From an uncultured Clostridium sp. (lineage in GTDB: Bacteria; Bacillota; Clostridia; TANB77; CAG-508): a DNA stretch of 64,000 bases. A model generated the notes under the pieces. That model saw only the letters and a list, made by a program, of their open reading frames with translations. It ran no database searches and was not told the origin of the DNA. The stretch lies in assembly GCA_945865665.1 (NCBI GenBank), contig CAMBEE010000002.1, positions 57,961 to 121,960 of the forward strand, written 5' to 3'. Positions 5,758-52,570 of this stretch are shown here, piece by piece. The position numbers and the translations under genes are program-made. Numbering within the stretch: the first letter of the stretch is position 1; each line of letters opens with the position of its first letter.

Positions 5758-5765
5758 TTAAATTA

Positions 5766-8261: not shown

Positions 8262-8475
8262 AAATGTTGAAATCCGTAGTATTTTGAAAAAATTTAACAC
8301 AAATGTTACAAAATCTTAATATAAATGTTTTATAAAATAAAAGAAACTCTCAAAATCAATATCCGTAGATATAGAAGTAATGCCGCTGACAAATGACTCC
8401 AAAAGTACTATTGAAAAGAAAAAAAGAATTTATTAAAATAAAATCAACTATAATTATGAAAAAGGAGAAACAATT

Positions 8476-36749: not shown

Positions 36750-36955
36750 TATTACCAAATAAAGATGTTCCTTTTGAAAAATCATTATTGAAATATAGTA
36801 TTGATGTGCTAAATTCAATAAATGGAAAAATAAAAGTAGAAGATTTGTATAAAAATACTAATATAAAAACTAAAGATATTGATGCTATTTTAGCGTTCCT
36901 ATATGCAATAAATAAAGTTGAAATAAATGATGAGTGGGTGATAAGGATTGATTAA
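36746..36955 (+). CDS. small (69 aa) protein, candidate ABC-3C middle component
   Basis: Translationally coupled on both sides: a 4-nt overlap upstream and an 8-nt overlap downstream. Confidence 0.6.
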   Translation: MILPNKDVPFEKSLLKYSIDVLNSINGKIKVEDLYKNTNIKTKDIDAILAFLYAINKVEINDEWVIRID

Positions 36956-38651
36956 AAAGATATATAGTCGAACATTAAAAACGTTTAAAACAATTGAGTT
37001 TAGCGAAGGATTTAATTTTCTTGTATCAGAGTCGGTTAACGGAAAAAGCAATAATGGAACTGGTAAAACTAGTTTAATTCAAATAATAAATTTTTGTTTT
37101 GGATCAAGTACGGAAAAAATATCTACATACGAAGACTTAAATAAAGAAGAATTTAGTGTTGACTTAGTAATTGATAATAAGACTATTACTTTATCAAGGA
37201 CCCCTCAAAATGTTACTAAAATCAAAATTATAGATAAAGAAAATCTATTAGGTGATGGTGTCTTAGAAGATGAACCTAAAACCATTGATTGGGTAAAAAA
37301 TAAATTAAACAAATTAATCTTTGGAATTGAAAATGAAGAGGTATCATTTAGAAATTTAATTTCACCATTTATGAAGAGAGGGGCGTTTGCATTTAATAAT
37401 ATATATAAAACACATGCTATGGAAACTAATATAGTAACCCAATTAAAAAACTCTTTTCTTATGAATATACCAATAGAACCTATCATAGAATTAAAAGCTC
37501 TAGTTGAAGAAAGAGAGTCATTCTTAAAGTTAAAAGAAATAAAAGAGACTGATATTATATGGAAAAAAGAAAAACAAAATACATTAAAAAGTAAAATTAG
37601 AAACTTAGATAAAGAGATAAAAGAAAATGAAGAAAAGCTTAAAAAATTTGAACTGACATTAAACGAAAAAGAGAATATAAATGATATTCATAAAATAAAT
37701 GCAGAATTATCAAATCTAATTAAAGAAAAATATATTTATCAAAACTACATAGAGTCTAATAAAAAGATTATAAACAATGATAGTCTTTTAGGTATTGAAC
37801 AAATAAGAGAGATTTTGGAAGAATCTAAATTTTTTGTTACAAATGGTGAAATGAAAACATTAGAAGAAATTCAGAAATATCATATTAAATTAAACAAAGA
37901 TAGAAATGAAAGAGTAAAAAGTTTAATAGAAAGTGATCAAAATAAAGTAAAAGAAATAGAATCAAAAATTGATGATATAAATTTAAAGAAAATAAATATT
38001 TTAAAAGAATTTGATAAAAAAGGATATTTAGATGACTATTATAGTACAAATGAGATCATAACTAATTTAAAAATTGAGAAAAGTGATTTAGAAAAACAAT
38101 TAGATGTATACATAGCATTAAATCAAATAGACACTAGTTGTAAAGAGAAAGTAAAATCAATAATAAAAAAGTTAGAAAAAAATGATAATTGCAATAATTT
38201 TAAGATTATAAATAATAAGTTTAAAGAATATATAAGAAAAATCTTTGATGAAGATGCTAAACTTATTATGGAATGTAAAAATACAGGAAATTATGCTACA
38301 AGAGGATATAATTATGATTGGGAAATACCTAGAAAATTAAGCAGTGGATATTTAAAAGGTTGTATTGCAGTATATGACTTAGTATTAGCAGACTCTAATA
38401 GTGATAGATTTCCAATATTTTTAATACATGATAGTGTAGTATTTGAATCTACAGATAAACAATATGTAGCGAAATTTCTAAATTTAACAAATGAAATCAT
38501 AGGAAATAATAGATTTCAATATATATGCTGTGTTAATGATGATCAAATAGTTAAAAATGAATTAAATAAAGCTGTATTAAAAAAATATGAAGAAGCACAA
38601 AGAATTTCACAAGAAGACACTTTATTTGGAATTAATTTTGGTAATAGATAA
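36948..38651 (+). CDS. SMC/Rad50-like ABC ATPase with coiled-coil insert (DUF2326-like; candidate ABC-3C ATPase)
   Basis: Walker A SNNGTGKTS at the N-terminus. ~250 aa of K/E-rich coiled coil. LSSGYLKG (signature-like) and FPIFLIHDS (Walker B) near the C-terminus. Confidence 0.75.
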   Translation: MIKKIYSRTLKTFKTIEFSEGFNFLVSESVNGKSNNGTGKTSLIQIINFCFGSSTEKISTYEDLNKEEFSVDLVIDNKTITLSRTPQNVTKIKIIDKENLLGDGVLEDEPKTIDWVKNKLNKLIFGIENEEVSFRNLISPFMKRGAFAFNNIYKTHAMETNIVTQLKNSFLMNIPIEPIIELKALVEERESFLKLKEIKETDIIWKKEKQNTLKSKIRNLDKEIKENEEKLKKFELTLNEKENINDIHKINAELSNLIKEKYIYQNYIESNKKIINNDSLLGIEQIREILEESKFFVTNGEMKTLEEIQKYHIKLNKDRNERVKSLIESDQNKVKEIESKIDDINLKKINILKEFDKKGYLDDYYSTNEIITNLKIEKSDLEKQLDVYIALNQIDTSCKEKVKSIIKKLEKNDNCNNFKIINNKFKEYIRKIFDEDAKLIMECKNTGNYATRGYNYDWEIPRKLSSGYLKGCIAVYDLVLADSNSDRFPIFLIHDSVVFESTDKQYVAKFLNLTNEIIGNNRFQYICCVNDDQIVKNELNKAVLKKYEEAQRISQEDTLFGINFGNR

Positions 38652-38674
38652 ATAGTAATGATTCAACATCATTA

Positions 38675-39718
38675 CTATTTATCTAACCACTTATCAAATT
38701 CTTTATAAGTTTTCTCATTAGATCTAATGGCATCCATAAATTCTTTAGCTTCTTTTTTCCAATTTTCATAATCAATCTTATAAACTTCTATATCAGGATT
38801 ACGCTTTACTAGCATTGCTTTTTTTGCATAAATCTTACGATATTTACCATAAACAATTTCATTTTCTTGCTTAATTCTTTGAGCAATTTGGTTTCCGATA
38901 TCTCTACAAGTTTGTTTTCCTTTGAATAAATTATTACAGTAATTAATGCGTGGATTATCTGTTATAAAGTATTTACCACAATTTTTACATTTCTTAATAA
39001 GATATTTATTATTAAGTACGAATTGAAACAATGTAACATATAAAATTCCATAAATGTTTTCGTTATTAGTGCTATAATTTGGTTCAATTTCATAACAGAA
39101 TTTAGACTTAAAGAATTTTATTAAATCTTTTTCTGTATTTCCTTTAATATCAGAAATAGTTCTAAAAGAAAAGCCTTGTGGCATAGAAAAATGATTATTT
39201 ATAAATCTATCAAGTTCCTTAAAATGAGAATTATAATAAATATAAAATCTTATTTTTGTACTAAAATCATTTATTTCTTTAATGTTATTAAGGTTAAAAA
39301 TATAATCAACAAATTTTGATAATATTTCTTGACCATGTTTTGAGTCTTTTTTTATTTCTTCATAATATTTTTTAAATAAATTTTTTACTTTACTAAAAGA
39401 ATAAAATTTATTAATTTCAAATTTATTTATATCTTCTTCTCCAATATATATTATGTACGAAGTGAGAAACTTAGTAAACCACATAAAACATTCATTAAAA
39501 TTATCAAAATCACAATTTAAGAAAGAGATGAGTTCACTACAAAGTGGTTGTATGTTAGTTATAGTATCAATAGTAAAATAGCCAGTATCTCCATCTTTTA
39601 AATCATAATATCCTGGTTTTGATGATTTTGTTTTTCCATATAAAAATGCCTTATGGGTGAATTCTTCATTTGTTGAAACAAAGATATTTATAGGTTCATC
39701 ATATTCTAATTTATTCAT
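38675..39718 (-). CDS. hypothetical protein with C-terminal zinc-ribbon (CKNCGKYF…NYCNN…CRD)
   Basis: 347-aa ORF with RBS GGAGG, transcribed divergently from the xis-rep operon. Candidate element regulator, from position only. Confidence 0.6.
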   Translation of the reverse strand: MNKLEYDEPINIFVSTNEEFTHKAFLYGKTKSSKPGYYDLKDGDTGYFTIDTITNIQPLCSELISFLNCDFDNFNECFMWFTKFLTSYIIYIGEEDINKFEINKFYSFSKVKNLFKKYYEEIKKDSKHGQEILSKFVDYIFNLNNIKEINDFSTKIRFYIYYNSHFKELDRFINNHFSMPQGFSFRTISDIKGNTEKDLIKFFKSKFCYEIEPNYSTNNENIYGILYVTLFQFVLNNKYLIKKCKNCGKYFITDNPRINYCNNLFKGKQTCRDIGNQIAQRIKQENEIVYGKYRKIYAKKAMLVKRNPDIEVYKIDYENWKKEAKEFMDAIRSNEKTYKEFDKWLDK

Positions 39719-39785
39719 AATTCCTCCGTTAACAGTTTATAAATTTATTTAAAGTTAACCTGCTATCAAAATAAACCAAAAAGTA

Positions 39786-39814
39786 TTTACAAAGTTAACT
39801 ATTGACAATATAAT
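39786..39814 (+). promoter_or_regulatory. consensus sigma-A promoter of the xis-replication operon, with GTTAAC palindromes
   Basis: TTTACA (39786-39791), 17-nt spacer, TATAAT (39809-39814). GTTAAC occurs at 39728, 39754, 39794 (inside the spacer) and 39821. Confidence 0.65.
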
Positions 39815-39867
39815 ACAAATGTTAACAAAAGTCAATACTAATTTTCAAAAAGACAGGAGGTGATATT

Positions 39868-40065
39868 ATGGAATTACCAAAGATTCAAAGGACAACACTA
39901 ACAATGAAAGAAGCAGCAGAGTATTTAGGTGTATCTTATTGGTTAATAAATCAATTAGTAAGAAGAAAGCAAATACCATGCTCTAAAGTTGGTGGAAAGT
40001 ATTTATTTAGAGTACAAGCGCTAGATGAATATTTAAAAAATATGGAACAAAAATCTATAAGTTAG
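39868..40065 (+). CDS. xis: excisionase-family (MerR-like HTH) DNA-binding protein
   Basis: LTMKEAAEYLGVSYWLINQLVRRKQIPCSKVGGKYLFRVQALDEYL is the classic excisionase/DNA_binding_excisionase pattern. Confidence 0.85.
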   Translation: MELPKIQRTTLTMKEAAEYLGVSYWLINQLVRRKQIPCSKVGGKYLFRVQALDEYLKNMEQKSIS

Positions 40066-40111
40066 ATTACAAAGAAAGCGAGGAAAGGAGGATATTTATA
40101 GTTTACAATGG

Positions 40112-40603
40112 TTGAAAATAGAATTAAAAATATTTTCAAATAGGAAAATTCAAATACTGTTAAGAGAGCCAGATGGAGATACATATTTTAGAGTATGGAT
40201 TCAATTATTAATTATTGCTGTAGAATGCAATAGAAATGGAAAATTAGTAATAGGCAATAATAAACAAATGACAATAGAAAATTTTTCAAAGATTATGGGA
40301 AAATCTAAGAAAAAAATTGAAAAAATTATTCAAAAATTTCTAGAATTAAATATGCTAATTGTCGAAGATGGAGCATATAAAATTAAAAATTGGGACAAGT
40401 ATCAAAGCATTGAACCGTATGAAAAATATAAAGAACAAAATAGAATTAGACAACAAAAATATCGTGAAAAGTTGAAAAGTGAAAAAGAAGAAAGTAACGT
40501 TACAATAACGTTGGATAACACACAAGAAGAAAATAAGATTAAAAATATATTAGATAAAGAAGGAGATGAGAATAGAAGTGGATTTAGAAAATGTGAATTT
40601 TAA
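40112..40603 (+). CDS. phage replisome organizer N-terminal-domain protein
   Basis: LKIELKIFSNRKIQILLREPDGDTYFRVWIQLLIIA matches the WIKL..DFF.d.Ki family signature. The start codon is unclear (TTG 40112; the frame is open from 40061). Confidence 0.65.
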   Translation: MKIELKIFSNRKIQILLREPDGDTYFRVWIQLLIIAVECNRNGKLVIGNNKQMTIENFSKIMGKSKKKIEKIIQKFLELNMLIVEDGAYKIKNWDKYQSIEPYEKYKEQNRIRQQKYREKLKSEKEESNVTITLDNTQEENKIKNILDKEGDENRSGFRKCEF

Positions 40604-41420
40604 AGTTATCACCAATGAAGGTGCAAAATGTGGATTTTGCAATAAAAAATTAAAGCCAGTAGGATTAAGTTATCTTTATGCAAATGTTAATCACGATATG
40701 GTAGAATATGAAAGGTGTGATTGTAGTGAAGCAATTGCATTTTGGAGACAATATGATTCAAAGCAAAATGAAAAAGAAAAACAAAGAAAGTATAGAGAAA
40801 TTATAAATAAAATATATAAGGATGGCAGTATAAAAAAGAAATTAAAATATTGTAATTTTTTAAATTTTGATAGATTTAAAGATAACCAAGAAGTATTAAC
40901 AACATTAATAAAATATACACATTTATGCATAGAAAACAAAGTTAAAGACGGAATTATTATACATGGAAGTATAGGATATGAAAACACTCATTTAGCAGCA
41001 AGTATCGCTAATGAGATTATTAGAAATAAAAAAATTGCATTATTGGAAAGGACTAGTTCTATAATAGATAGAATAAAAGAATCTTTTAATAAAACTGTTA
41101 CGACAGAGTCAGAAATTATGGAACTTTATTCTAATGTTGATATGTTAATTATCGATGATTTTGGGAGTGAAACAATAAGTAAATGGGCTTTAGAAAAGTT
41201 GTATAGAATTATTAATAATAGATATGAAAACGAGTTACCAATAGTAATTACAACTAGATATACAAGAGAAGAATTGATGGAGAAAATTGCTATTGAAAAT
41301 AGGAAATTAGCAGAAGAATTTATACAAATTTTATACAAAATGTGTTATGGAATTTCACTCATAAAAAATGATAGAAATGCAAAAGAAAAAGCTAGCAAAA
41401 GCGACCAAACTAAATGCTAA
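40566..41420 (+). CDS. DnaC/IstB-like AAA+ helicase-loader homologue with degenerate Walker A
   Basis: N-terminal Cys cluster (CGFC…CDC). HGSIGYENTHLAASIANE occupies the place of GxxGxGKTHLAxAIANE (40965-40988). Walker B MLIIDDFGSE is intact, as is sensor IVITTRY. Confidence 0.75.
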   Translation: MRIEVDLENVNFKVITNEGAKCGFCNKKLKPVGLSYLYANVNHDMVEYERCDCSEAIAFWRQYDSKQNEKEKQRKYREIINKIYKDGSIKKKLKYCNFLNFDRFKDNQEVLTTLIKYTHLCIENKVKDGIIIHGSIGYENTHLAASIANEIIRNKKIALLERTSSIIDRIKESFNKTVTTESEIMELYSNVDMLIIDDFGSETISKWALEKLYRIINNRYENELPIVITTRYTREELMEKIAIENRKLAEEFIQILYKMCYGISLIKNDRNAKEKASKSDQTKC

Positions 41421-41474
41421 CTTAATCCAAAATCTAAAAATATTATAATATGTTTTTAAACAAAAGTAAAGCAA

Positions 41475-41513
41475 AAAAGTTCAAGTTTTTATTTTAGAAA
41501 TTTGAACTTTTTT
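41475..41513 (+). terminator. hairpin terminator after the replication genes
   Basis: aaaaagttcaa-N17-ttgaacttttttt. Confidence 0.5.
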
Positions 41514-41734
41514 GAAAATATTTTGAAAAAATTTATATCAAAAATATCCCTCGGAGAGCCAAAAAGGGTATTAGGGCATTTTGCCCTAAACAGCCAAAAG
41601 GGTGTCAAAACACCACGCTGGCGAATATTAGGTACTAAAAAATACTACCTATATTCAAGCAAAATAAATTTTGCTAACTATCAATGCTATGTAGACTAGC
41701 ATTAATAAAATTAAAAAAGTAGGAGTGATGAAAA

Positions 41735-42358
41735 ATGAAAATGGATTCAGAGCAAGTTTTAGATAGTATTTTCTTATCATATAATAAAATCTTAAAGAGA
41801 TTTCAATTACTAGGTGTTACTACTAAATATGGAAAAGAAATAACACATAAAGATTTAAGAAAAGCTATAGAAGTTATGCTAAAAAAACATCCAACTTGCA
41901 GATGGAGGAGTGAGAAAGTAAAAAGTAGGAAATATTTTATTTTAGCAGAAGGATATGCATGGTTAAATCAAGTATATTTTCAAAAGGAAAAATCACTAAC
42001 AGATGCTGATGTGGATTTTTTTGAAGATAGAATTGGACAGTATGAAGAATTGTTAAAAGTAGAACATCATGAAAATTGGTGGAATGAAGACATGGATATA
42101 AAACAGTTATGCAATTACTTCAATAGGAAAGAAAATACTGTTAGAAAAGCAATTAAGAAAATGTGTGATAATGGATTTGAGCAATATAAATTTTTAGTTG
42201 ATGGAAAAGTTGTTATTTCCAGTAAAGGTGTTGAGTGGATTTGCAAAAATGTTTTTAAACAAAAATATTTGGAATTCTTAGAAAAGTATAAGATGGAGTT
42301 AACTGAAAAATATATTAAAGCTGGTTATCCTTATGATATTTTCTTTGGAAGAAATTAA
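41735..42358 (+). CDS. hypothetical protein (207 aa)
   Basis: Good RBS (AGGAG). No motif recognised. Confidence 0.6.
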   Translation: MKMDSEQVLDSIFLSYNKILKRFQLLGVTTKYGKEITHKDLRKAIEVMLKKHPTCRWRSEKVKSRKYFILAEGYAWLNQVYFQKEKSLTDADVDFFEDRIGQYEELLKVEHHENWWNEDMDIKQLCNYFNRKENTVRKAIKKMCDNGFEQYKFLVDGKVVISSKGVEWICKNVFKQKYLEFLEKYKMELTEKYIKAGYPYDIFFGRN

Positions 42359-42451
42359 AAATAATATAAATATAGGAAAATTTGTTGTGAAAAAAGTCGT
42401 TTTGTGATATAAAATATACTAGAGAAATTGTAAATCAAAGGAAATGATAAT

Positions 42452-42769
42452 ATGGAAGAATTAATGAGAGAAATTAAACAATTTAATGCAGAAAGAGATT
42501 GGGATAAATTCCACTCGCCAGAAAATTTAGCTAAATCAATAGCAATTGAGTCTGGAGAATTATTAGAATGTTTTCAATGGGATAGTGAAAATTATGATAA
42601 AGAAGAGGTTTGCGAAGAATTGGCGGATGTTTTTAATTATTGCATTCAAATGGCTATGAAATTAAATGTGAATCCAGAAGAAATTATATTAAAAAAATTA
42701 GAAAAGACAAAGAAAAAATATCCGGTTGAAAAAGTTAAAGGAGTAAGTACAAAATATAGTAAATTATAA
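42452..42769 (+). CDS. MazG-like nucleotide pyrophosphohydrolase (small all-alpha NTP-PPase)
   Basis: FNAERDWDKFHSPENLAKSIAIESGELLECFQW…EELADVFNYCIQMA is the typical MazG/dCTPase-like EExxE/D pattern. Confidence 0.8.
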   Translation: MEELMREIKQFNAERDWDKFHSPENLAKSIAIESGELLECFQWDSENYDKEEVCEELADVFNYCIQMAMKLNVNPEEIILKKLEKTKKKYPVEKVKGVSTKYSKL

Positions 42770-42796
42770 AAGTAATAATTAGTGGGGGCAATTATT

Positions 42797-44743
42797 ATGA
42801 TAGTATATGAAGCAACAAAACAATCTTTTTTGGAAGATGTTTATAATGATCAAGTAGCAAAAAAAATTAAAGAAAAAATAGGATTTAATGTTGGAAGTAG
42901 TGAAAATGAATCTTGGATAGATACAGCAAATCATATGGAAAAAATATTAAGAGATAATAGATTTCCAAATGATATTTCTGTAGCAATGGAATTTAAATTA
43001 TACAATTCAAAGCTAAGAGTGGATTTTATAATATGTGGATTAAATGAAGAAATGAAACACACAATTATAGTAATAGAATTTAAAAGATGGAATAGTGTCA
43101 AAGTAGTTACAGACAGAGATGATATGGTAGAAGTAAAAGCTTATGGGATAGTACAGCATCCATCATATCAAGCACTTTCATATGCAAAAGTCATAAAGAA
43201 CTTTTATGCAGCTGCAGAAGAGGACAAAATGACTATATATCCATGTTCGTGTTTACATAGATATGAAAAAAAAGAAAACGATGCTATAACGGATAATCAA
43301 TATAAAGAACTTTTAGAGGAATCACCAATTTTTTTAAATGGGGAAAATGATAAATTAAAAGAGTTTATTAGTAAACATATAAAATACGGAGACAATAAGG
43401 AAACCTTATATATATTAGAAGAAGGTGGTATTAAGCCTTCAAAACAGTTACAAGATAATATACTAAATATGTTGAATGGAAAAGAAGAATTTTCTATGGT
43501 AGATTTACAAAAAGACGTATTTGAAGAAGCAAAAAGATTAGCAAAATTATCAAAAAAAGATGGTAAGAAAAGAGTCTATATAGTAGAAGGTGGACCTGGT
43601 ACAGGTAAGTCTGTAATTGCAATAAATTTACTAGGACAACTTTTAGGAAAGTATGGAATGAACTGTCAGTATATAACAAAAAATCAAACACCAAGAGATG
43701 TATATTCTGTTCAATTAAAAGGAACTTATAAAAAGACTGAAATTGATAATTTGTTTTGTGGGTCAGGATCATATATAAAAGAGAAAAGTAATGACTTTGA
43801 TGTATTAATTGTTGATGAGGCACATAGACTCACCGAAAAGACAGGATTTTTAAAAAGGGGAGAAAATCAAATAAAAGAGATTATCAATGCTACTAGATTT
43901 GCAATATTTTTTATTGATTCAAAACAACGTATACATATAGATGATTATGGAACAAAAGAAAGGATAGAGTTTTTTGCTAAAGAATTAAATGCTGAAATAT
44001 CATATGGAAAATTAAATGCACAATTTAGATGTGGAGGAGCTGAAAAATTTATAGATTGGGTAGAAAGTTCTCTACAGTATAATGACGTGAGTGATGAAGA
44101 AATAGATATGACATTTCTTAAAGATTATAAAGTTAAAATTTTTGATAATCCAAATGAGCTAAAAGAACAAATTATTAGATGTAACAATATTAAGAATAAA
44201 TCAAGAATATTGGCAGGATACTGTTGGGATTGGATTTCAAAAGAAAATCCTAAAGGCAATAAATATGATATAGAGATACCAGAATATGATTTTAAAATGA
44301 AATGGAATTTTAATAAAACAATTTGGGCAATAGATAAAGATTCTGTTGAACAAGCTGGTTGCATACATACATCACAAGGACTAGAGTTTGATTATGTTGG
44401 AGTAATAATAGGAAAAGATTTACGTTACGAAAATGGAAAAGTTATAACAGATTTTAAAGAAAGAGCATCAACAGATAAGTCATTATCTGGAATTAAGAAG
44501 ATGTATAAAGAAAACCCAGAAGGAGCTTTAAAATTAGCAGATGAAATTATAAAAAATACATATAGAACATTATTAACAAGAGGACAAAATGGATGTTATA
44601 TATACTGTGAGGACAAAGCTTTAGCAGAATACCTAAAAAGAAGTTTAGAACAAGTTAGTAAAATTATTTATAAAATTGATGAAGATGATGAATTTGGAAA
44701 ACTGATGGTAGCTGAAGAAGGAGAAGAATATAAATATAAATAA
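42797..44743 (+). CDS. DUF2075-type (Schlafen-helicase-like) ATPase with N-terminal PD-(D/E)xK-like nuclease region
   Basis: N-terminal …RVDFIICG…IIVIEFKRW (restriction-endonuclease-like D…E.K). Walker A GGPGTGKS (43589-43612). Walker B DVLIVDEAHRL. C-terminal TSQGLEFDYVGVIIG (SF1 motif VI-like). The start is moved to ATG 42797. Confidence 0.75.
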   Translation: MIVYEATKQSFLEDVYNDQVAKKIKEKIGFNVGSSENESWIDTANHMEKILRDNRFPNDISVAMEFKLYNSKLRVDFIICGLNEEMKHTIIVIEFKRWNSVKVVTDRDDMVEVKAYGIVQHPSYQALSYAKVIKNFYAAAEEDKMTIYPCSCLHRYEKKENDAITDNQYKELLEESPIFLNGENDKLKEFISKHIKYGDNKETLYILEEGGIKPSKQLQDNILNMLNGKEEFSMVDLQKDVFEEAKRLAKLSKKDGKKRVYIVEGGPGTGKSVIAINLLGQLLGKYGMNCQYITKNQTPRDVYSVQLKGTYKKTEIDNLFCGSGSYIKEKSNDFDVLIVDEAHRLTEKTGFLKRGENQIKEIINATRFAIFFIDSKQRIHIDDYGTKERIEFFAKELNAEISYGKLNAQFRCGGAEKFIDWVESSLQYNDVSDEEIDMTFLKDYKVKIFDNPNELKEQIIRCNNIKNKSRILAGYCWDWISKENPKGNKYDIEIPEYDFKMKWNFNKTIWAIDKDSVEQAGCIHTSQGLEFDYVGVIIGKDLRYENGKVITDFKERASTDKSLSGIKKMYKENPEGALKLADEIIKNTYRTLLTRGQNGCYIYCEDKALAEYLKRSLEQVSKIIYKIDEDDEFGKLMVAEEGEEYKYK

Positions 44744-44865
44744 GAATTAATAATTATTGAAAAAAAGGTAATAATATAATATACTTATAATGATGATAAA
44801 CATATTTTATAAAATTTAATATAATTAATAATAGAAGATTTTAAGAATTATGGGGAGATATTATT

Positions 44866-45297
44866 ATGAAAGTGATAGAGGTTGCTGAATTTTTTTTGAC
44901 AAAGCAAAGCATGACAAATAAAAAAATACAGAAACTATGTTATTATGCACAAGCATGGTTTTATGCTTTATATAATAGAAAATTATTTGATGAAAAAATT
45001 GAAGCATGGGTGCATGGACCAGTTTGCCCTATATTATATAGAGAATATGCTGAGTTTGGATACAAAGAGGTACCTAAAATAAATAAAGAAATAAAGATGC
45101 AGGAAACGGAAAAAGATATTTTAAATCAAGTGTGGGAAATATATGGAAAACTGGATGGAGATGAATTAGAAGTTTTGACACACAGAGAACAGCCATGGAT
45201 AGAAGCTAGAAATGGAATTGATTATAGAAAACCATCTAATAATGAAATATTGCCACAAAATATGGGAAAATATTATAAAGAAAAATATGGTGTATAA
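44866..45297 (+). CDS. Panacea-domain (DUF4065, SocA/GepA-like) antitoxin
   Basis: KKIQKLCYYAQAWFYALYNRKLFDEKIEAWVHGPVCPILY is the hallmark Panacea motif. RBS GGGGAG. Confidence 0.8.
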   Translation: MKVIEVAEFFLTKQSMTNKKIQKLCYYAQAWFYALYNRKLFDEKIEAWVHGPVCPILYREYAEFGYKEVPKINKEIKMQETEKDILNQVWEIYGKLDGDELEVLTHREQPWIEARNGIDYRKPSNNEILPQNMGKYYKEKYGV

Positions 45298-45881
45298 TGC
45301 CTAAGAAGAATAGAAAAAAGAATATTCCTGCAGATGTAATTTCAAAAGAATTAGAAAAAATTAATTCGAAAGATAATGAAAAAGTAATATTTAGTTTTGA
45401 TTTTTTGGATAGATATCATGAATTATTTAATATGGGAGATAATAAAGATAATCCATTAAGTACAGAAGTAGGTTGGTTTTTGGATCTTTTAGATTGCTTA
45501 AATAATGTATCTAAGATGACAAGAGTCGAATTTAAATCTAATACAACATATGACCTTCATCCTGTGAACTGGGCAGGGGCAAATATTAATTGCCCTGCAG
45601 ATATGGAACAATATGAGTGGTGGCAGTTTAGAATAAGTAAAAGTAAAGGAAGAATTGTTGGAATTTTTATAGAAAATTGTTTTCATATTGTTTGGTTAGA
45701 TAGATATCATAACTTGACCAACAGTGAAGGATATGGAAAAGAGAATCGTTATAAAGTACCATTAAGTTTGTATGAAATGAAAGAGATAGAATTAAGTAAA
45801 GCATATGATAGAATAAAAGAATTGGAAGAAGAAAATTCTATATATGAAGACTTATTTGGTTATAAGGAGGGATTAACATGA
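45297..45881 (+). CDS. candidate toxin (194 aa); the C-terminal half resembles RelE/YoeB-fold toxins
   Basis: The start overlaps the PanA stop by 1 nt (TAATG). WWQFRISKSKGRIVGIFIENCFHIVWLDRYHNL parallels the YoeB/RelE pattern W.RRI…HRLVY…I…RYHY. Inference only. Confidence 0.5.
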   Translation: MPKKNRKKNIPADVISKELEKINSKDNEKVIFSFDFLDRYHELFNMGDNKDNPLSTEVGWFLDLLDCLNNVSKMTRVEFKSNTTYDLHPVNWAGANINCPADMEQYEWWQFRISKSKGRIVGIFIENCFHIVWLDRYHNLTNSEGYGKENRYKVPLSLYEMKEIELSKAYDRIKELEEENSIYEDLFGYKEGLT

Positions 45882-46699
45882 TATTACAATTTGAAGAAAA
45901 AAAGATTGAAGTGAAAGAAGAGTACGTAAAAACTGTGACTTCTAAATCTACAGGAAATGAATTAAATACATATAGATTTAAAATCAGAGTGGCTGGAAAA
46001 GAAAAATTTGAAGATTTTAAGAATAAAATGAATATGTATAAAGAAAAATTTATTTCTCAAATTGATGATAACGGAAATATATTGGCTAAATATAATGTAG
46101 GAACATGGAGTTATAGATACTATAATGAATTTGATTCAGAAGATACGAATTATTTGTGTGATGTAGAAATTATACAAGGTGAAGAATTAAAAACTGATAT
46201 TATAATTATTGAAGGAATAGAAAATGAAGTACTGAAATACAAAGAAGAATTTGACAATTATAATAAAGCTATTGTTATTAGAGCTATAATAAAAAATACA
46301 GAAGAACAAAGAGAAAAAATAAATAATGCTATTGGAGATAATAAATATTTTAAAGTAAAAAGACCAGGAATAAATAACGAAATATTAGAAATGCGATTTG
46401 GAAAAACAATATGGTCTAAACATGAAGGCTATATAAAAAGAAGTATTGTTCTAGTCGAAAAAAAATATGATGAAAATGACAAATTAAAAAAACCGTTTTT
46501 TTGGCCAGAATTAACCAATATGATGGATATTATGGCTAAAAATACTGTTTATATAGAAAAGTTAGAGGAAACATTGAAAAAAAATAATATGATAACTGAT
46601 GAAAATATAAAAGAAATAAAGATACAAGTGGAAAAAGAATATAAGAATGTATATAGACAATACTATCTAGTAGAAGATGTAGAAGAAGACTTTGAATAA
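45878..46699 (+). CDS. hypothetical protein (273 aa), third gene of the PanA operon
   Basis: 4-nt ATGA overlap with the upstream gene. Strong RBS AAGGAGGG 7 nt upstream. No recognisable motif. Confidence 0.65.
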   Translation: MILQFEEKKIEVKEEYVKTVTSKSTGNELNTYRFKIRVAGKEKFEDFKNKMNMYKEKFISQIDDNGNILAKYNVGTWSYRYYNEFDSEDTNYLCDVEIIQGEELKTDIIIIEGIENEVLKYKEEFDNYNKAIVIRAIIKNTEEQREKINNAIGDNKYFKVKRPGINNEILEMRFGKTIWSKHEGYIKRSIVLVEKKYDENDKLKKPFFWPELTNMMDIMAKNTVYIEKLEETLKKNNMITDENIKEIKIQVEKEYKNVYRQYYLVEDVEEDFE

Positions 46700-46834
46700 T
46701 ATTACAGTTAGATAGAAACAATTATACAACTTGTTTCTAATATGGAACAACAATAAATATTATAAATAAAAACTTTCTTTTTTTGGAAATAACATGATAT
46801 AATATTATTAGATTAAAAAAGGAGAGTTTTTATT

Positions 46835-47770
46835 ATGTTAGGAGAGAAAATAAAATTATGTAGAGAAAGTAAAAATATGACTCAGGTTGAAATTGCAGAA
46901 ATATTGGGGGTAAAAGCAGCCACTGTTTCTAAATATGAGTCTGGAACTTTAGAACCTAATATTGAATCATTGAAAAAGTTAGCTGAATTATTTGATATTT
47001 CAATTGATGAGTTATTAAAAGAAGATGATTTTGATATATCTAAAATAAATATTTTAGAAGTATTAAGAGAGCAAAAAAATATGAAATTAAAAGGAAATTT
47101 GTATCACAATACTCAAATTACATTTGCATATAATACAAATCATATTGAAGGAAGTAAGCTCACAGAAGATCAGACTAGATATATTTATGAAACTAACACC
47201 TTATTGGCAGAAAAAGATTCTATTACAGATTTAGATGATGTATTAGAAACGGCTAATCATTTTAAATTAGTTGATTATATGTTAGATATAGCAGGTAAAA
47301 AGTTAGCTGAAAAGATGATAAAAGAGTTTCACAAAATATTAAAAGAAGGAACATCAGACAGTAGAAAAGATTGGTTTGCTGTTGGAGATTATAAGAAATT
47401 ATCAAATGAAGTAGGGGGACTAAAAACTACAGATCCTAAAAATGTTGAGCGAGATATGAAAAAATTATTAGAATGGTATGAGTCTTTGAAACAAGTTACA
47501 ATAAATGAAATAATAGAATTTCATGCTAAATTTGAAAAGATACATCCGTTTCAAGATGGAAATGGGAGAATCGGTAGATTAATTGCATTTAAAGAATGCT
47601 TAAAGAATAATATAGTACCGTTTATTATTCTAGACAAAGATAAATTGTTTTATTATAGAGGGTTAAACCAATATCAAACTAATAAAGAAAAAGGATATTT
47701 AATAGATACTTGTTTAAATGCACAGGATCAATATACAGAAATGATTAAATATTATGTTGGAAATAAATAA
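46835..47770 (+). CDS. XRE-family HTH + Fic (AMPylase/Fido) domain protein
   Basis: N-terminal LGEKIKLCRESKNMTQVEIAEILGVKAATVSKYESG (HTH_XRE). Fic motif HPFQDGNGRIGR at 47543-47578. Confidence 0.9.
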   Translation: MLGEKIKLCRESKNMTQVEIAEILGVKAATVSKYESGTLEPNIESLKKLAELFDISIDELLKEDDFDISKINILEVLREQKNMKLKGNLYHNTQITFAYNTNHIEGSKLTEDQTRYIYETNTLLAEKDSITDLDDVLETANHFKLVDYMLDIAGKKLAEKMIKEFHKILKEGTSDSRKDWFAVGDYKKLSNEVGGLKTTDPKNVERDMKKLLEWYESLKQVTINEIIEFHAKFEKIHPFQDGNGRIGRLIAFKECLKNNIVPFIILDKDKLFYYRGLNQYQTNKEKGYLIDTCLNAQDQYTEMIKYYVGNK

Positions 47771-47777
47771 ACTAAAG

Positions 47778-47826
47778 AAAAGCAAAATAATAGTAATTAG
47801 ATATTACAGAATTATTTTGCTTTTTT
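47778..47826 (+). terminator. rho-independent terminator after fic
   Basis: 10-bp stem gcaaaataat/attattttgc with a structured loop, followed by TTTTTT. It is duplicated at ~50333-50382. Confidence 0.65.
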
Positions 47827-47921
47827 GATAATAAGAGACAAGTTACGACAAAATTTTCAAATAGTAAGTGCTATATTAGATGTTAAATTATCGATAAAGA
47901 TATGTAATAGGAAGGAAGTAT

Positions 47922-48713
47922 ATGTTTACAAATAGGGAATTAGCTATAATGATATGGGTCAATGTGTTTATATTGTATTGTTTATTAAAGCCAGATGTAA
48001 GGCAATCGTTTAAGAATGTAATAAAAGCAACATTTAACAAAAAATTAGTAATGTTATATATTATTATATATACATATATGGCATTTTGTATATATATTCT
48101 TTATAAGGTAAGATTTTGGAATATAAATTTATTGAAGGATACTCTTATATGGCTTATAACTATACCTATATTCTCGATAATAAAAGCAGAAGAAGATAGT
48201 AAAAAATACTTTAGAGAGACATTAAAGAGTTGTTTTGAAGTTTATATCTTAATAGAATTTATAGGAGTTAATTATCCTTTTAGCTTATGGATCGAATTAA
48301 TTATCATTCCAATTGTATTATTATTTTCATTAGTAGGAGAATTTGGAGAAAGATTCGGAGGAACGAAGGAAGTTTCTACTTTTGCATATTCTATAGTTAT
48401 AATAATATCTTTTGCTGCATTTGTACATTCAATAAGGCTAATGATTAATGATATACAAAATATTTTTACTGAAGACACTCTAAAAAGTATAATTTACATA
48501 CCAATATTGACTATAATATATATGCCAATGACATATTTAATATTAGTTTTTATGAAATATGAAACATTTTGGGTTAGAGTAAAGTGTAAAAACTATTTAT
48601 CAAAAAAAGATAAAAGAATGGTAATGTGTAAAGCAATAAAAAATTGCAAACTAAATCTTAATAAGATAAAAAATATAAAGTTAGAAGAATATATAAATAT
48701 TATGGAGAGATAG
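47922..48713 (+). CDS. hypothetical multi-pass membrane protein (263 aa, ~6 TM)
   Basis: RBS AGGAAGGA. Strongly hydrophobic segments throughout. No family recognised. Confidence 0.7.
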   Translation: MFTNRELAIMIWVNVFILYCLLKPDVRQSFKNVIKATFNKKLVMLYIIIYTYMAFCIYILYKVRFWNINLLKDTLIWLITIPIFSIIKAEEDSKKYFRETLKSCFEVYILIEFIGVNYPFSLWIELIIIPIVLLFSLVGEFGERFGGTKEVSTFAYSIVIIISFAAFVHSIRLMINDIQNIFTEDTLKSIIYIPILTIIYMPMTYLILVFMKYETFWVRVKCKNYLSKKDKRMVMCKAIKNCKLNLNKIKNIKLEEYINIMER

Positions 48714-48715
48714 AT

Positions 48716-49651
48716 ATGAAAAATTATGGAAAATGTCATATATGTGGAAAAAACACACAATTAACATTCGAGCATATTCCACCTGAAAAAGCAAACAATT
48801 CTGACGATGCACATGCAATATTAGGTGATACATTGATGAATCATATAGGAAGTACAAGGCAACCATGGGATTTAACGGGATTAAGATATAAAAATTTGCA
48901 ACGAGGAATGGGAGGATATACATTATGCGAAGCTTGCAACAATAATACTGGAGCATGGTATGCAGATGATTATATTAATTTCGTTAATACTATAGGATAT
49001 GTACTAACAAATAAAGTAGATTTAGAAAAAGTTAAAGCAGTAAAAATTGAATTAAAAGAGATGCATCCTTTAAGAATTTTTAAGCAGATAATTTGTATGT
49101 TTGCGTCTACAATGCATGCAGAATTTTTTGATGCACATCCAGCACTAAGAGATTTTATTCTCAATAGAGAATCTACGAATTTTGATCCAAAAAAATATAG
49201 AATTAGCATGTATATCTTAAAAGAACCCCGTTGTGGTTGGTCTGGGTTAAATGTTATGATGTATGGTAATGGAAAGATTAAAACAGTAGCATATATGGAT
49301 TTATATCCAGTAGGATTTATATTAGAAATAGATCCAACAGAAGATACATTTGAATATGTATCTGATATTACAAATATGGGTACTGATTTTACATATAATG
49401 ATAAAGGAATATTAGGAGTTACATTAAACATCCTAGAAAGAAATACTTTGTGGGTAGGAGATTTTAGAAGTAAAGAGGATATTTTAAAGCAAAGTAAAAA
49501 AAGTAGAATTGATACAATAGAAATAATTAAAGATGAAATGAATAGATTAAATATAAAAGAAGAAAAATACAAAAGTGTTATTGATGAATATATCAATAAT
49601 CAAATAAGTTCAAGTGAATTTTTAAATAGGATTGAACAGATAAAAGGCTAG
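48716..49651 (+). CDS. hypothetical protein with N-terminal HNH-like treble-clef motif (311 aa)
   Basis: CHICGKNTQLTFEHIPPEKANN…YTLCEACNNNTG (CxxC…EH…N…CxxCN). It starts 3 nt after the membrane-protein stop, with RBS GGAGAG. Confidence 0.65.
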   Translation: MKNYGKCHICGKNTQLTFEHIPPEKANNSDDAHAILGDTLMNHIGSTRQPWDLTGLRYKNLQRGMGGYTLCEACNNNTGAWYADDYINFVNTIGYVLTNKVDLEKVKAVKIELKEMHPLRIFKQIICMFASTMHAEFFDAHPALRDFILNRESTNFDPKKYRISMYILKEPRCGWSGLNVMMYGNGKIKTVAYMDLYPVGFILEIDPTEDTFEYVSDITNMGTDFTYNDKGILGVTLNILERNTLWVGDFRSKEDILKQSKKSRIDTIEIIKDEMNRLNIKEEKYKSVIDEYINNQISSSEFLNRIEQIKG

Positions 49652-49723
49652 AATTGACTCGTCTTTTATTGTATTTATTGTTTTAAGATATTTTTTCACA
49701 AATTTGAAAAAATGCATAAAAAT

Positions 49724-49757
49724 CCAAAGTTTTTTCAAAATTTTGAAAAAACTTTGG
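49724..49757. repeat. perfect 34-bp palindrome (17+17), probable bidirectional terminator
   Basis: ccaaagttttttcaaaa|ttttgaaaaaactttgg, located between convergent coding regions. Confidence 0.6.
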
Positions 49758-49770
49758 AAAAGATATTTAA

Positions 49771-50064
49771 TTAATTATCAAAACTACCACCAATTAGCAG
49801 CAGCCCATCGAAAAAAACATTCCTATAATATTTCTCATTCCAATAATCAAGATATTTCATAAAATCATCATACAATTTATCAAGTTGAGACTGAACAAAC
49901 TGCTTATTATCCTTAGAAACATTACGAAAAATTTTCTCGCAAAACTTATCAAAATTCAAACTATCTTTATAATCCTTATCAGAAAGTTGACAAAGTAAAG
50001 ACTCCTATCTAAACATTAACCAATCTTCCAAAATATCATCATTAACTTCTCTTAAATTATTAAT
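49771..50064 (-). pseudogene. decayed copy of the small gene at 53256-53549
   Basis: The DNA aligns with 53256-53549. The start codon is changed (CAT->AAT at 50062) and there is an in-frame stop (…EDWLMFR* versus …KDWLEFREET). Only the C-terminal 62 codons remain open. Confidence 0.75.
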
Positions 50065-50233
50065 AATCTAAAATTTCCTAAAAATATCTCTTATAAGAGC
50101 TAATTTTGTAAGAACAAACGTATCATACCCATTGGGTAAAATCTTCTCCAAAAATACCTAAAAAGATACAAATGTTCTACAAATCAAAAATCTTGTAAAT
50201 ACCTAAATACCAACAAAAACACGTCAAACCTTG

Positions 50234-50437
50234 CTAATAAAGAAAAAGGTTATTTAATTGATACTTGTCTAAATGCTCAAGATCAATATATATAAATTAT
50301 TAAATACTATATAGGTAATAAATAAACAAAAGAAAAGCAAAATAATATTAATTATATATTACAAAATTATTTTGCTTTTTTGATAGAAAATGACAAGATT
50401 CGACAAAAAAATACTAGTAAAAGTTGTAGAATAAAAA
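50234..50437 (+). repeat. duplicated fic 3' end + terminator + downstream leader (copy of 47679-47880)
   Basis: ctaataaagaaaaagg(t/a)tatttaat(t/a)gatacttgt… through the gcaaaataat…attattttgctttttt terminator and …gacaag(a)ttcgacaaaa aligns with the end of the intact fic gene. Confidence 0.8.
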
Positions 50438-50449
50438 AGGGGAATAAAA

Positions 50450-52570
50450 ATGAAAATTGATTTGCATTGTCACACAAAAAGAACGAAGATAGGGGATCCT
50501 GAAACTAGAAATGTTACTTTAGAATTATTTAAAGAAAAGATTATTAATAGTAATGTTAGAATTGTAGGAATAACAAACCATAATCTATTTGATGTGCATC
50601 AATATAATGAATTAAAGGAAAGTGTTACTGGATTTGCACAAGTCTGGCCAGGAATTGAACTAGATGTAAAATACAAAGGTAATATAGGACATTTAATTGT
50701 TATATATAATCCAGAAAAAATAAGTGAATTTGAAATTCTGCTGAACAAATTAATAAATGAGCAAACTCCTGATGAAGTAGAAATAGATTTAAATGAATTT
50801 GTAAAGGATTTCTCAACTAAAGATGCTATATTTATTGCACATGACTACAGAAAAGCACAAAGTTTTAGCAGAGAAATGATTGAGATATTAAAGAGCGGAA
50901 TTACCGAAAAATATAGAATATTTTCAGAACCTAGTAGTTTTAAGAGTTTGAGTATTATGTTAGATAATGGAATACAAGCAATCTTGGGAAGCGATATTAA
51001 AGATTGGACCAATTATCCAAATTGTGAATTGCCTGAATTAAAGTTAGATGTAGATAGTTTTGAAAAATTAATTTTATTAGCCAAAAAGGATAGAGCTACC
51101 ATAAACACATTATTAAATAAAAAAGAACAAAAAATAAAAGAAATTCAAATAAAGATTAATGATTCTAAAAAAGAAAAAACAAAGATACCAATATATAATG
51201 ATATAAATGTGATTTTTGGAACAAAGGGAACAGGTAAAACAGCGGTTTTAGAAGGATTAAAGAACAAATACTTACAAGATGGAAACAGATATTCTTTCTA
51301 TAGAGCTTCAGATGTAGATGAGGTAATGGACCAAAAATTAAAATTTAGCGATACAGAAAGAACCAATACCAATTTAGATATCAGTTTTGTCAAAGAAATG
51401 ATAGAATTTATAAAAAATTGGGAAGAAATTTTACCAACATCCTTAAATGACTATATTGAATATTCAAAGACAAAAAAGAACAACAAAAATAAAGGAAGAT
51501 TAAAGATTACAGCCTTAAAGACAACTTTTAAAAATAATAGTAAGTTAAATAAACTAAAAAATGAATATCAAATAGTAAAAGATATTATTAGTCAAATAGA
51601 AGAATATAATTTAGAAAAATATTTAATACCAGAAGATGCAAAAGTATATAAAGAAATTAATAATAAAATAAAAGAAAATTGTTTTTCTTTATTAAAATTA
51701 GAACATATTGATTATTATTCAAATAAATTAAGTAATGCTAGTATAAAAATAATTAAACAAAAAGCTGATTTATGTACAACGTCAAAGTCTTTACCGGATA
51801 GTACAGGTTTTTTGGAATTTTCACAGAATTATTTAAATTTGAAAAATCATATTCAAAACTTTAAAAAGTGTATGGATGGTAAAACGGAAAAAAGCAGAGA
51901 AAAAATAGGAAATCTTGATGAAGGTAAAGAGGTATATTTATCTGTTGAACATAGGATATTCAAAAGTAAAGTTAAAGAATTTAAATATGGGCAAAATATC
52001 AGTGATTTAAATAAAATATGTAATTTAATTTTGGGATTAGATAAAAATTTTAAGGTAGAACTCAGTGAGAAAATAGATAATATAAGGGAAGAATTTGAAA
52101 AAGTTAATTTAAAAGCAAAAGATTTCATTGGAATAAAAAAACAGTATGAAAATAAACTAGGTGAATACTACAAGCCTTCAGATGGAGAAAAAATAATGTT
52201 AATATTGCATAAAAAAATATTCGAAGATGCAGATGTATATTTATTAGATGAGCCAGAAAGAAGCTTAGGAAATACTTTTATAAATTCTGTAATTGTACCT
52301 AGGATTGTAGAATTAGGAAAAATGGGAAAAACAGTGATTGTGGCAACACATAATGCTAATATAGCAGTTAGAACATTACCTTTTACCTCAATATTGAAAT
52401 CTTATGAGAATGGAAAATATAAAACATATATTGGTAATCCTTTTACAAATGAGCTGATAAATATAGAAGATAGTAATGATACTAAGAATTGGAAGGATGA
52501 AAGTATTAAGGTATTAGAAGGTGGAAAAGAAGCTTTTGATGATAGGAGAATAGTGTATGAATCAAGATAG
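50450..52570 (+). CDS. PHP-phosphoesterase domain fused to an ABC/OLD-like ATPase (706 aa)
   Basis: N-terminal IDLHCHTKRT…GITNHN (PHP metal-binding His motif, 50459-50476). Walker A GTKGTGKT. C-terminal PSDGEK (signature-like), VYLLDEPERSLG (Walker B/D-loop), VATHNANI (H-loop). Confidence 0.8.
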   Translation: MKIDLHCHTKRTKIGDPETRNVTLELFKEKIINSNVRIVGITNHNLFDVHQYNELKESVTGFAQVWPGIELDVKYKGNIGHLIVIYNPEKISEFEILLNKLINEQTPDEVEIDLNEFVKDFSTKDAIFIAHDYRKAQSFSREMIEILKSGITEKYRIFSEPSSFKSLSIMLDNGIQAILGSDIKDWTNYPNCELPELKLDVDSFEKLILLAKKDRATINTLLNKKEQKIKEIQIKINDSKKEKTKIPIYNDINVIFGTKGTGKTAVLEGLKNKYLQDGNRYSFYRASDVDEVMDQKLKFSDTERTNTNLDISFVKEMIEFIKNWEEILPTSLNDYIEYSKTKKNNKNKGRLKITALKTTFKNNSKLNKLKNEYQIVKDIISQIEEYNLEKYLIPEDAKVYKEINNKIKENCFSLLKLEHIDYYSNKLSNASIKIIKQKADLCTTSKSLPDSTGFLEFSQNYLNLKNHIQNFKKCMDGKTEKSREKIGNLDEGKEVYLSVEHRIFKSKVKEFKYGQNISDLNKICNLILGLDKNFKVELSEKIDNIREEFEKVNLKAKDFIGIKKQYENKLGEYYKPSDGEKIMLILHKKIFEDADVYLLDEPERSLGNTFINSVIVPRIVELGKMGKTVIVATHNANIAVRTLPFTSILKSYENGKYKTYIGNPFTNELINIEDSNDTKNWKDESIKVLEGGKEAFDDRRIVYESR

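Follow-up and report, generated by a model that had tools for sequence, protein, structure and literature searches.

A Panacea antitoxin, a predicted HigB-like toxin and a coupled third gene from a large, mostly autonomous family in an uncultured Clostridium

This analysis concerns a three-gene operon in an integrative element of an uncultured Clostridium sp. (GTDB lineage Bacteria; Bacillota; Clostridia; TANB77; CAG-508). The operon lies in a stretch of 64,000 nucleotides (positions 57,961 to 121,960 of contig CAMBEE010000002.1, assembly GCA_945865665.1), which is called the window below, and its genes are called g1, g2 and g3. The evidence is best explained, with a probability of about 0.6, by a type II toxin-antitoxin pair made up of a PanA antitoxin (g1) and a HigB-like toxin (g2), to which g3 was added once as an accessory gene with a job of its own, probably directed at phage tails.

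The operon and its PanA antitoxin

The three genes follow each other without a gap. The stop codon of g1 and the start codon of g2 overlap by one nucleotide (TAATG), those of g2 and g3 overlap by four (ATGA), and a Shine-Dalgarno sequence for g3 is embedded in the 3' end of g2 (Table 1). Both overlaps are read directly from the sequence, and they bear out the open reading frame positions and the couplings given in an initial annotation, which had been made from the letters of the window alone. Because both g2 and g3 have many homologues (at least 121 for g2 and 605 representatives for g3), they are, as judged from sequence comparison, genuine genes and not chance open reading frames. The G+C content of the operon region is 26%, and that of the whole window is 27.5%.

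Two promoter-like sites fall in the AT-rich gap of 122 nucleotides that precedes g1. Sites of this kind are rarer in the region than in shuffled sequences (11 versus 18.4 +/- 4.5), and the two sites are only suggestive of real promoters. No intrinsic terminator was found within positions 44600-47000, that is, neither inside the operon nor just downstream of it.

Residues 21-111 of g1 match the Pfam family SocA_Panacea (PF13274; E = 1.4e-21) with a score of 78 bits, where 25.7 would suffice, and g1 also matches phrog_1281 (E = 1.8e-43). Judged by its domain, g1 is clearly a Panacea/PanA (DUF4065) antitoxin, as the initial annotation had stated. With 143 amino acids it is shorter than the PanA proteins of related loci that lack g3 (148-166 amino acids), and it has no C-terminal chaperone-addiction (ChAD) extension. 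The models of PADLOC-DB v2 give no match for g1, g2 or g3.

The PanA-g2 pair in genomes and phages

When one genome was scanned for each species, 17 loci with g2 emerged, in Clostridia, Selenomonadales, Peptococcus, Lentisphaeria and others. IMG/VR added a further 27, many of which lie on phage contigs of 110-140 kb. A PanA gene is situated immediately 5' of g2, overlapping it or a few nucleotides away, in all 15 of the 17 genome loci that keep their upstream DNA, in the 27 viral loci and in the metagenome loci. This invariable adjacency indicates that PanA and g2 form a conserved two-gene core with the standard PanAT architecture. Kurata et al. recognize a PanAT pair by a conserved partner gene less than 100 nucleotides away across species, and g2 is such a partner. 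The pair also resembles known PanAT systems in that the antitoxin comes first and is coupled, at a gap of -1 nucleotide, to an unrelated candidate toxin, and in that it occurs in both bacteria and phages.

About 20 distinct PanA-g2 loci, phages included, have no g3. A near-identical pair of this kind recurs in about 20 phage contigs from IMG/VR (L030-L053, 110-140 kb), nearly all from one metagenome, and a phage lineage thus carries the pair. A tblastn search with g2 gave no match among isolated phages. As the g2 family comes nearly entirely from metagenome-assembled genomes and metagenomes, with a single RefSeq accession dating from 2025, it is probably a new PanT (Panacea-associated toxin) family, outside the catalogue of Kurata et al.

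A separate observation was made in Peptococcus simiae (L012), where four genes with PanA domains lie within 7.5 kb (3424-10861). One of these (8348-8830) is followed by a distant paralogue of g2 (8730-9266), which matches the g2 profile with E = 2e-6. The cluster may thus be a Panacea 'island' whose toxins have diversified.

The predicted fold of g2

In sequence libraries g2 is silent: Pfam, NCBIfam, PHROGs, PADLOC and the sequences of the PDB yield no match that passes the threshold, and a search of PDB sequences with the g2 profile was empty. What the library scans of g2 and g3 did return was noise below the thresholds (Peptidase_M14_N, Pox_TAP and MAG6450_fam, the last with E = 4e-4, below its cutoff). 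The view that g2 belongs to no obvious family thus holds for g2 and for the 48 relatives that, together with it, make up the 49 sequences used for the Pfam and conservation checks.

The structure predicted by AlphaFold2 is more informative. The model (predicted local distance difference test score, pLDDT, of 82) has the topology beta-alpha-alpha-beta-beta-beta, with strand beta1 at residues 31-33, helices at 60-72 and 76-81, strands at 108-112, 119-125 and 128-135, and a long helix at 158-192. The RelE-like fold covers roughly residues 30-140. When the model is compared with the PDB by Foldseek, toxins of the RelE/ParE superfamily account for 16 of the 18 top matches. The best of these is HigB from the Proteus vulgaris plasmid Rts1 (PF05015; PDB entry 4px8), with a probability of 0.99 and a template modelling (TM) score, normalized to the target, of 0.55; it is followed by P. 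horikoshii RelE, M. tuberculosis RelK, YoeB and YafQ. HigB is also the best match of the g2 family at the level of sequence profiles. In hhalign, residues 43-133 of g2 align with residues 13-87 of HigB over 74 columns (E = 0.01), with a score of 20.2 compared to 12.3 +/- 2.5 for shuffled HigB, a value reached by one of 200 shuffles. The HigB reference sequence used here is 100% identical to the annotated plasmid genes. The initial annotation had proposed a RelE-type fold for g2, and the two comparisons lend this proposal substance. It had also described an extension of about 100 amino acids preceding the toxin core, which has to be revised: this stretch is mostly the N-terminal half of the same fold (beta1, alpha1 and alpha2).

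The motifs of the two proteins are in register: LFNMGD of g2 with LFEKGV of HigB, DLHPV with KLHPL, EWWQF with GYWSI, and GRIVGIFIENCFHIVW with WRITFQFINGDAYILN. The shared pattern can be described as LF.-G, (K/D)LHP(L/V), (Y/W)W and (G/W)RI, the last with two beta strands after it. Six residues of g2, H88, R112, K115, R119, D135 and H138, are invariant in all 49 sequences; Q110, N139, S143 and Y146 are also among the invariant residues of the family. As DLHPV is aligned with KLHPL, H88 is placed on the catalytic His54 of HigB; R119 aligns with Arg73, and K115 is found at a one-residue gap beside Arg68. The residues critical for HigB are His54, Asp90, Tyr91 and His92 (PMC5027501). The hhalign alignment ends at residue 87 of HigB, and it is only under an ungapped extension that Y/H137 and H138 can be inferred to be equivalent to Tyr91 and His92. 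The same extension leaves D135 one position off Asp90. Where HigB ends in E-D-Y-H, g2 has the motif D-x-(H/Y)-H.

The g2 protein is twice as long as HigB. To the fold it adds a basic tail at the N-terminus (residues 1-29, isoelectric point (pI) 9.8), two loop insertions and a C-terminal coiled coil of about 50 amino acids. An insertion of 11 residues relative to HigB follows LHPV. The long helix of this coiled coil is missing from some homologues (P0071, P0081 and P0091) and gives weak bZIP, DivIC or HALZ matches in several members of the family. The antitoxin of g2 is PanA and not HigA, the gene order is antitoxin-first, the core is acidic, and a Pfam match is lacking. PanA partners resembling RelE, HigB-2 and YoeB, assigned by HHpred, are contained in Dataset S1 of Kurata et al. 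(PMC8832971). From its modelled fold and the alignment with HigB, g2 is predicted to be a HigB-like candidate toxin (PanT) of the RelE/ParE superfamily.

The three-gene cassette

A g3 gene follows g2 only in the element of the window (L001-L004) and in L005, L092, L165/166, L168, L170/171 and L172. In a neighbor-joining tree of g2, the seven sequences linked to g3 (7 of 7) form a single clade without intruders. Within this clade g2 has diverged down to 50% identity and g3 down to 43%, and the g2-g3 junction is -4, -1 or +2 nucleotides throughout. The sequences flanking the cassette are unrelated and represent at least six different contexts, among them the defence-rich integrative element of the window; a candidate DNA methyltransferase, recognized by eye from its N-terminal motif, in L005; polysaccharide genes and a superoxide dismutase in L165; a Ymh-family gene and a module resembling a toxin-antitoxin-chaperone (TAC) system in L168; and radical-SAM and MBOAT genes in L170. 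The monophyly, the tight junctions and the differing flanks together indicate a single joining of the three genes, which from then on moved as one cassette.

The initial annotation had suggested that the three genes form a tripartite system that it could not match to a described one, and had named conservation of the arrangement as a check. The part of this claim that stands is that of a co-inherited unit, as the arrangement is fixed in one subclade of g2 (seven distinct loci). It does not extend further: g3 is not specific to Panacea systems, and the pair lacks it in the other loci, some 20 in number, described above. A dedicated tripartite mechanism is possible. Third genes accompanying Panacea pairs are also no novelty: Kurata et al. 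2022 (PNAS; PMC8832971) admitted architectures of three genes and list 25 clusters of accessory third genes, each occurring in no more than a subset of one PanAT pair. In being restricted to a subset, g3 is like these accessory genes. It differs from them in being fixed and tightly coupled within its clade and not sporadic, and it lies outside the accessory classes given in the main text of that paper (DNA-, nucleotide- and protein-modifying enzymes, helicases, proteases and nucleases).

Two further features were noticed next to the cassette. Directly 3' of it in L168 (3720-5048), a 142-amino-acid gene, an HTH_3 protein and a weakly SecB-like protein resemble a separate TAC-type module. In L170 (6412-6654) and L171 (2828-3070), an open reading frame of 80 amino acids overlaps the stop codon of g3 by 4 nucleotides. 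This possible fourth gene is without a Pfam match and lacks a counterpart in the window.

The g3 family

The initial annotation described the third protein as coupled and free of any recognizable domain, and the libraries agree: as with g2, the threshold is not passed by any match of g3 in Pfam, NCBIfam, PHROGs, PADLOC and the sequences of the PDB. It is far from being an orphan. A word-indexed search gave 16 relatives, and a HMMER scan with their profile gave the 605 bacterial and archaeal representatives (clusters at 50% identity) at E <= 1e-3, with 424 at E <= 1e-10 and 119 at E <= 1e-30. Nearly all of these proteins are 260-275 amino acids long and align from end to end. The longer relatives P0263 and P0292, considered as possible domain fusions, look like artefacts of gene calling. 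An archaeal copy belongs to the Methanobacteriaceae.

In 68 sampled members no Pfam, PHROGs or PADLOC family emerged; there were only stray single PADLOC matches and weak Pfam CARD matches, the latter in 12 of the 68 (best E = 8.9e-5). The CARD matches presumably fall on the C-terminal helices. The corresponding region of g3, with its LLxxLxxKGxLxxxE helices, is too short for a six-helix CARD. A tblastn search with g3 found no match in 50,697 phage records and none among plasmids.

To collect loci, a degenerate DNA pattern for RxGI...MRFG...WS was used, which returned three viral and 104 metagenomic loci, virtually all of them with true members of the g3 family. PanA-g2 stands beside g3 in only one of about 94 distinct loci (L092), and when the neighbors of these loci were clustered, none emerged as a conserved partner. 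In 13 of the 53 loci where this can be judged, the g3-family gene is coupled to the gene upstream of it; nine of these share one protein of 226 amino acids, which forms the largest neighbor cluster (9 loci) and has no Pfam match. Coupled downstream genes (16 of 71 loci) are heterogeneous. Within two genes of g3-family members there are OLD/GajA/AriA-like ATPases, Ser/Thr kinases, SAVED proteins, DUF4238, type I restriction-modification systems, GmrSD, integrases and a transposase, and look-ups of single loci added SIR2-STAND, relaxase, type IV secretion system and AbiTii neighbors. In the three viral contigs the neighbors, identified by eye, include a candidate DNA methyltransferase, a helix-turn-helix (HTH)-like protein and a candidate integrase, and no tail genes are recognizable. 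These varied neighbors in defence islands and mobile elements suggest that the g3 family behaves as accessory or defence cargo that is able to stand alone. The g3 of the cassette keeps all motifs of its solitary relatives and has no special features.

A divergent member of the family is located between an Hsp70 gene and dnaJ in L093 (7459-11744), and another immediately 5' of dnaJ in L064 (16-2791). The gaps to dnaJ are 8-12 nucleotides. This hints that some members of the g3 family are tied to the DnaK system.

The predicted structure of g3

In the AlphaFold2 model of g3 (pLDDT 85, predicted TM-score 0.66), two tandem beta-rich domains, whose secondary structure elements span residues 1-100 and 108-194, are followed by a C-terminal helical region. 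Each beta domain consists of four strands, a helix and three or four further strands, and the two domains are homologous to each other (hhalign E = 5e-4). In the C-terminal region the motif LLxxLxxKxIL is conserved, and the protein ends in an acidic VxDxD/E. The conserved polar motifs of the family are SKHTG, PYxYxE, RxGI, MRFGxxxWS and LVExxYD, of which PYxYxE, RxGI and MRFGxxxWS are located in the second beta domain.

The best structural matches of the model are proteins of the phage tail-tube/Dit class. The top Foldseek match in the PDB is the neck protein of phiCD508 (E = 3.5e-3), and it is accompanied by baseplate proteins of Mu and diffocin, Hcp, lambda and T1 tail-tip proteins, and the distal tail protein (Dit) of SPP1. 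Probabilities reach 1.00 over the PDB and BFVD. In BFVD seven matches have E < 1e-3, and these are mostly siphovirus tail proteins of about 265 amino acids that are matched over their full length; they are succeeded by proteins annotated as 'DNA circulation N-terminal', 'distal tail protein' and 'minor tail protein'. It is likely but not proven that g3 has a tail-tube/Dit-like fold. Foldseek searches with AlphaFold models, another check named by the initial annotation, thus gave the expected RelE-like fold for g2 and, for g3, tail-tube/Dit-like matches at low TM-scores.

With proteins of the tail-tube fold (SPP1 gp19.1, Mu baseplate, diffocin, phiCD508 and Hcp) g3 would share its predicted tandem beta-sandwich-plus-helix domains. 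It is unlike them in its additional C-terminal helical domain, its strongly conserved polar motifs, the absence of PHROG similarity and, in the three viral contigs that carry the family, a location outside any tail module. The polar motifs, which are unusual for tube proteins, speak for a specific site of binding or catalysis.

Proposed mechanism and its alternatives

The function of the operon may be described as follows. The g1 and g2 proteins would be made from one transcript via translational coupling. The g2 toxin would most likely halt translation by cleaving mRNA, using His88, Arg112, Lys115, Arg119, Asp135 and His138, and PanA would bind and neutralize it; toxicity, ribonuclease activity and neutralization are all inferred from the predicted fold, the conserved residues and the behavior of the family. 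In most relatives, phage-borne copies included, the pair would work without g3. The g3 gene would be a single acquisition, made when the g2 subclade that has it arose, and its source would be a large family of autonomous proteins of about 265 amino acids. From then on g3 would have stayed in translational coupling with g2, and the cassette would have been mobile as a unit. Because g3 has kept every motif found in the solitary proteins of the family, its job is most likely the same as theirs, and since its predicted fold is a tandem tail-tube/Dit-like one, this job is probably directed at phage tails. It would be co-expressed with the toxin-antitoxin pair and probably stabilized by it. As both partners occur widely without each other, g3 would be dispensable for toxicity and for neutralization.

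Several observations weigh against this description. On the side of g2, none of the 49 family members matches any of 13 Pfam toxin families at E <= 1 (for example HigB-like PF05015, ParE PF05016 and YoeB PF06769), the Foldseek E-values are marginal (0.015 at best), and the core is acidic, with a pI of 5.0 in the window and a family median of 5.7 versus 8.0 for HigB. On the side of g3, the model is built on 16 sequences only, and global TM-scores are low (about 0.25), reaching 0.45-0.54 only against single-domain targets; low global values are what one would see if the two domains were oriented differently from model to model. Neither the comparison of 68 members with PHROGs nor the tblastn search of phage records gives a sequence link between the g3 family and phage families. 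Finally, the tight junction and the co-divergence of g2 and g3 over at least six contexts favor selection on co-expression, and a functional link fits these data equally well as hitch-hiking.

The main rival to a separate role for g3 is that it is the phage-sensing arm of an integrated tripartite defence. Here g3 would be a tail decoy: phage tail proteins or assembly factors would engage it, PanA would be freed or destabilized, and the unleashed toxin would cause abortive infection. The conservation, coupling and mobility of the cassette as a unit over deep divergence, its location in a defence-rich element and the phage tail-tube, Dit and hub proteins among the best structural matches of g3 all accord with such a role. 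There is also a precedent, as the HigB-HigA-SecB-like TAC system acts against phages and is triggered by the major tail protein of lambda (PMC11980606; bioRxiv 10.1101/2024.02.24.581848). This explanation is nevertheless unlikely, because more than 99% of the g3 family exists without PanA-g2 and the pair often exists without g3, so that neither generally depends on the other, and because the g3 of the cassette is not specialized relative to its solitary relatives. The TAC systems (Bordes et al.; Mets et al. 2024), with three coupled genes and a HigB-type toxin, raise another thought, namely that g3 is a dedicated chaperone or stabilizer of PanA or the toxin, in the manner of a SecB-like third gene, and the divergent homologues adjoining Hsp70 and dnaJ genes could be cited in its favor. 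It is, though, a highly improbable one. A SecB identity of g3 was rejected: g3 and its 68 relatives have no SecB Pfam match, and SecB is not among the top 50 of 621 Foldseek matches in the PDB. In addition, the short PanA (143 amino acids) has no ChAD extension, the g3 family is mostly autonomous, most PanA-g2 pairs do without such a partner, and the dnaK/dnaJ neighbors are confined to a single pair of related loci.

It is also conceivable that g3 is self-sufficient in a stronger sense, either as a second effector or toxin under the control of PanA, whose domains neutralize many unrelated toxins (PMC8832971), or as a single-gene defence in its own right, such as a blocker of tail assembly, which has no more than the promoter in common with the pair. 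Members of the family do occur alone in defence islands and in the moron regions of prophages, and the single-gene tail-assembly blockers Tai and Tab are known from phage-inducible chromosomal islands (PICIs) and prophages (PMC11364771, PMC10884400). The likeness of Tai and Tab to g3 is one of concept, that of small cargo genes of satellites, PICIs and prophages giving tail-directed defence without a separate effector; Tai, a protein of proteobacteria, binds the central tail fiber or needle. Nothing points to toxicity of g3, its polar MRFGxxxWS, PYxYxE and RxGI motifs resemble a binding or active site more than an assembly poison, and an independent g3 overlaps with the preferred explanation, in which g3 is likewise separable. 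As an explanation in its own right, this one appears very unlikely. A different question is posed by g2, which might have the RelE/ParE fold and still not be a ribosome-dependent mRNase, acting instead as a ParE-like gyrase poison or as a ribosome-independent RNase. The fold does include gyrase inhibitors as well as RNases (PMC10440598, PMC11980606), and no RelE-type Pfam family matches g2. The acidic core is unusual, as the toxin would have to dock in the ribosomal A site, and such docking is not to be presumed. Set against this are the best structural and sequence match, which is HigB and not ParE, and the placement of H88 and R119 on His54 and Arg73, of K115 at the gap beside Arg68 and, under the ungapped extension, of H138 on His92. 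On balance it is unlikely that g2 has such an activity.

The integrative element around the operon

The operon is located inside an integrative element that occupies positions 34507-44743 and 46835-52570 of the window on its two sides. The genes of the element, among them many candidates for defence (Table 1), make it look like a satellite- or PICI-like island. A sister contig of 71.8 kb (L001) with the same g3 protein (P0121) has a 158-amino-acid gene and two ThsB-TIR genes at 1045-2704, where the window has the HNH_2 and DUF2326 ATPase genes (36012-38651). The stretch next to the integrase appears to be a hotspot for variable cargo.

On the 3' side, a protein of 311 amino acids with an N-terminal CxxC...CxxC/HNH-like region is encoded at 48716-49651, 2 kb from g3, and its homologue in L005 (7662-8588; 41% identity) is 273 nucleotides 3' of g3. 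It was considered as a partner of g3 and rejected, as jackhmmer found none in the other g3 or g2 loci. A multi-pass membrane protein of 263 amino acids (47922-48713) follows the HTH-Fic gene. Homologues of it in L088 (7641-8522) and L119 (2635-3516) are convergent with a solitary g3-family gene at a distance of 44 nucleotides; the g3-family and neighbor proteins of these two loci score identically and are probably the same sequence. The proximity could be due to sharing of a hotspot or to a real link.

Table 1. Features of the operon and of the surrounding element (positions in the window)
Feature	Position	Strand	Remark
Integrase	34507-35700	-	
HNH_2 protein	36012-36749		
AAA_23/DUF2326 ATPase	36948-38651		
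DUF6076 protein			Same integrative element
Replisome organiser with DnaA/IstB-like loader	40112-41420		
MazG-like protein	42452-42769		
NERD and DUF2075/Schlafen helicase	42782-44743		PADLOC PDC-S41
Promoter-like site TTGAAA-17-TATACT	44757-44785	+	10 of 12 positions match
Promoter-like site TAAACA-17-TATAAT	44797-44825	+	10 of 12 positions match
g1	44866-45297	+	Open reading frame of 143 amino acids
g2	45297-45881	+	Open reading frame of 194 amino acids
Predicted RelE/HigB-like core of g2	45384-45731	+	Residues 30-145; AlphaFold2 model and alignment
Long C-terminal helix of g2	45768-45872	+	Residues 158-192; coiled-coil/leucine-zipper-like, outside the RelE fold
Shine-Dalgarno sequence AAGGAGGG of g3	45864-45871	+	Within the 3' end of g2, 6 nucleotides 5' of the g3 ATG
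g3	45878-46699	+	Open reading frame of 273 amino acids
Two predicted tandem beta-rich domains of g3	45878-46477	+	Residues about 1-104 and 105-200; AlphaFold2 model
Predicted C-terminal helical region of g3	46478-46696	+	Residues 201-273; helices 213-235 and 241-261
HTH-Fic protein	46835-47770		PDC-S04/SoFic-like

Significance

The PanA-g2 pair would add one family of RelE/HigB-fold toxins to the long list of Panacea partners, which is useful and expected. The more valuable part of the finding is g3, which exposes a large unannotated family in defence islands, accessory regions of prophages, conjugative elements and satellites. A bolder and rather doubtful speculation is that the g3 family represents a new class of immune proteins directed at phage tails, in which a tail-tube/Dit mimic either poisons assembly or serves as a decoy sensor, and which has here been wired to a PanA/HigB-like pair. 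If this were true, the operon would be a tripartite toxin-antitoxin system of the 'guarded decoy' type, with a toxin triggered by phage tail components, and would be distinct from TAC systems of the SecB type. The cassette represents a lineage in which a member of the g3 family has long been locked to a toxin-antitoxin module. It may thus be a tractable case for asking what accessory third genes do, and whether proteins that mimic phage tails serve immunity.

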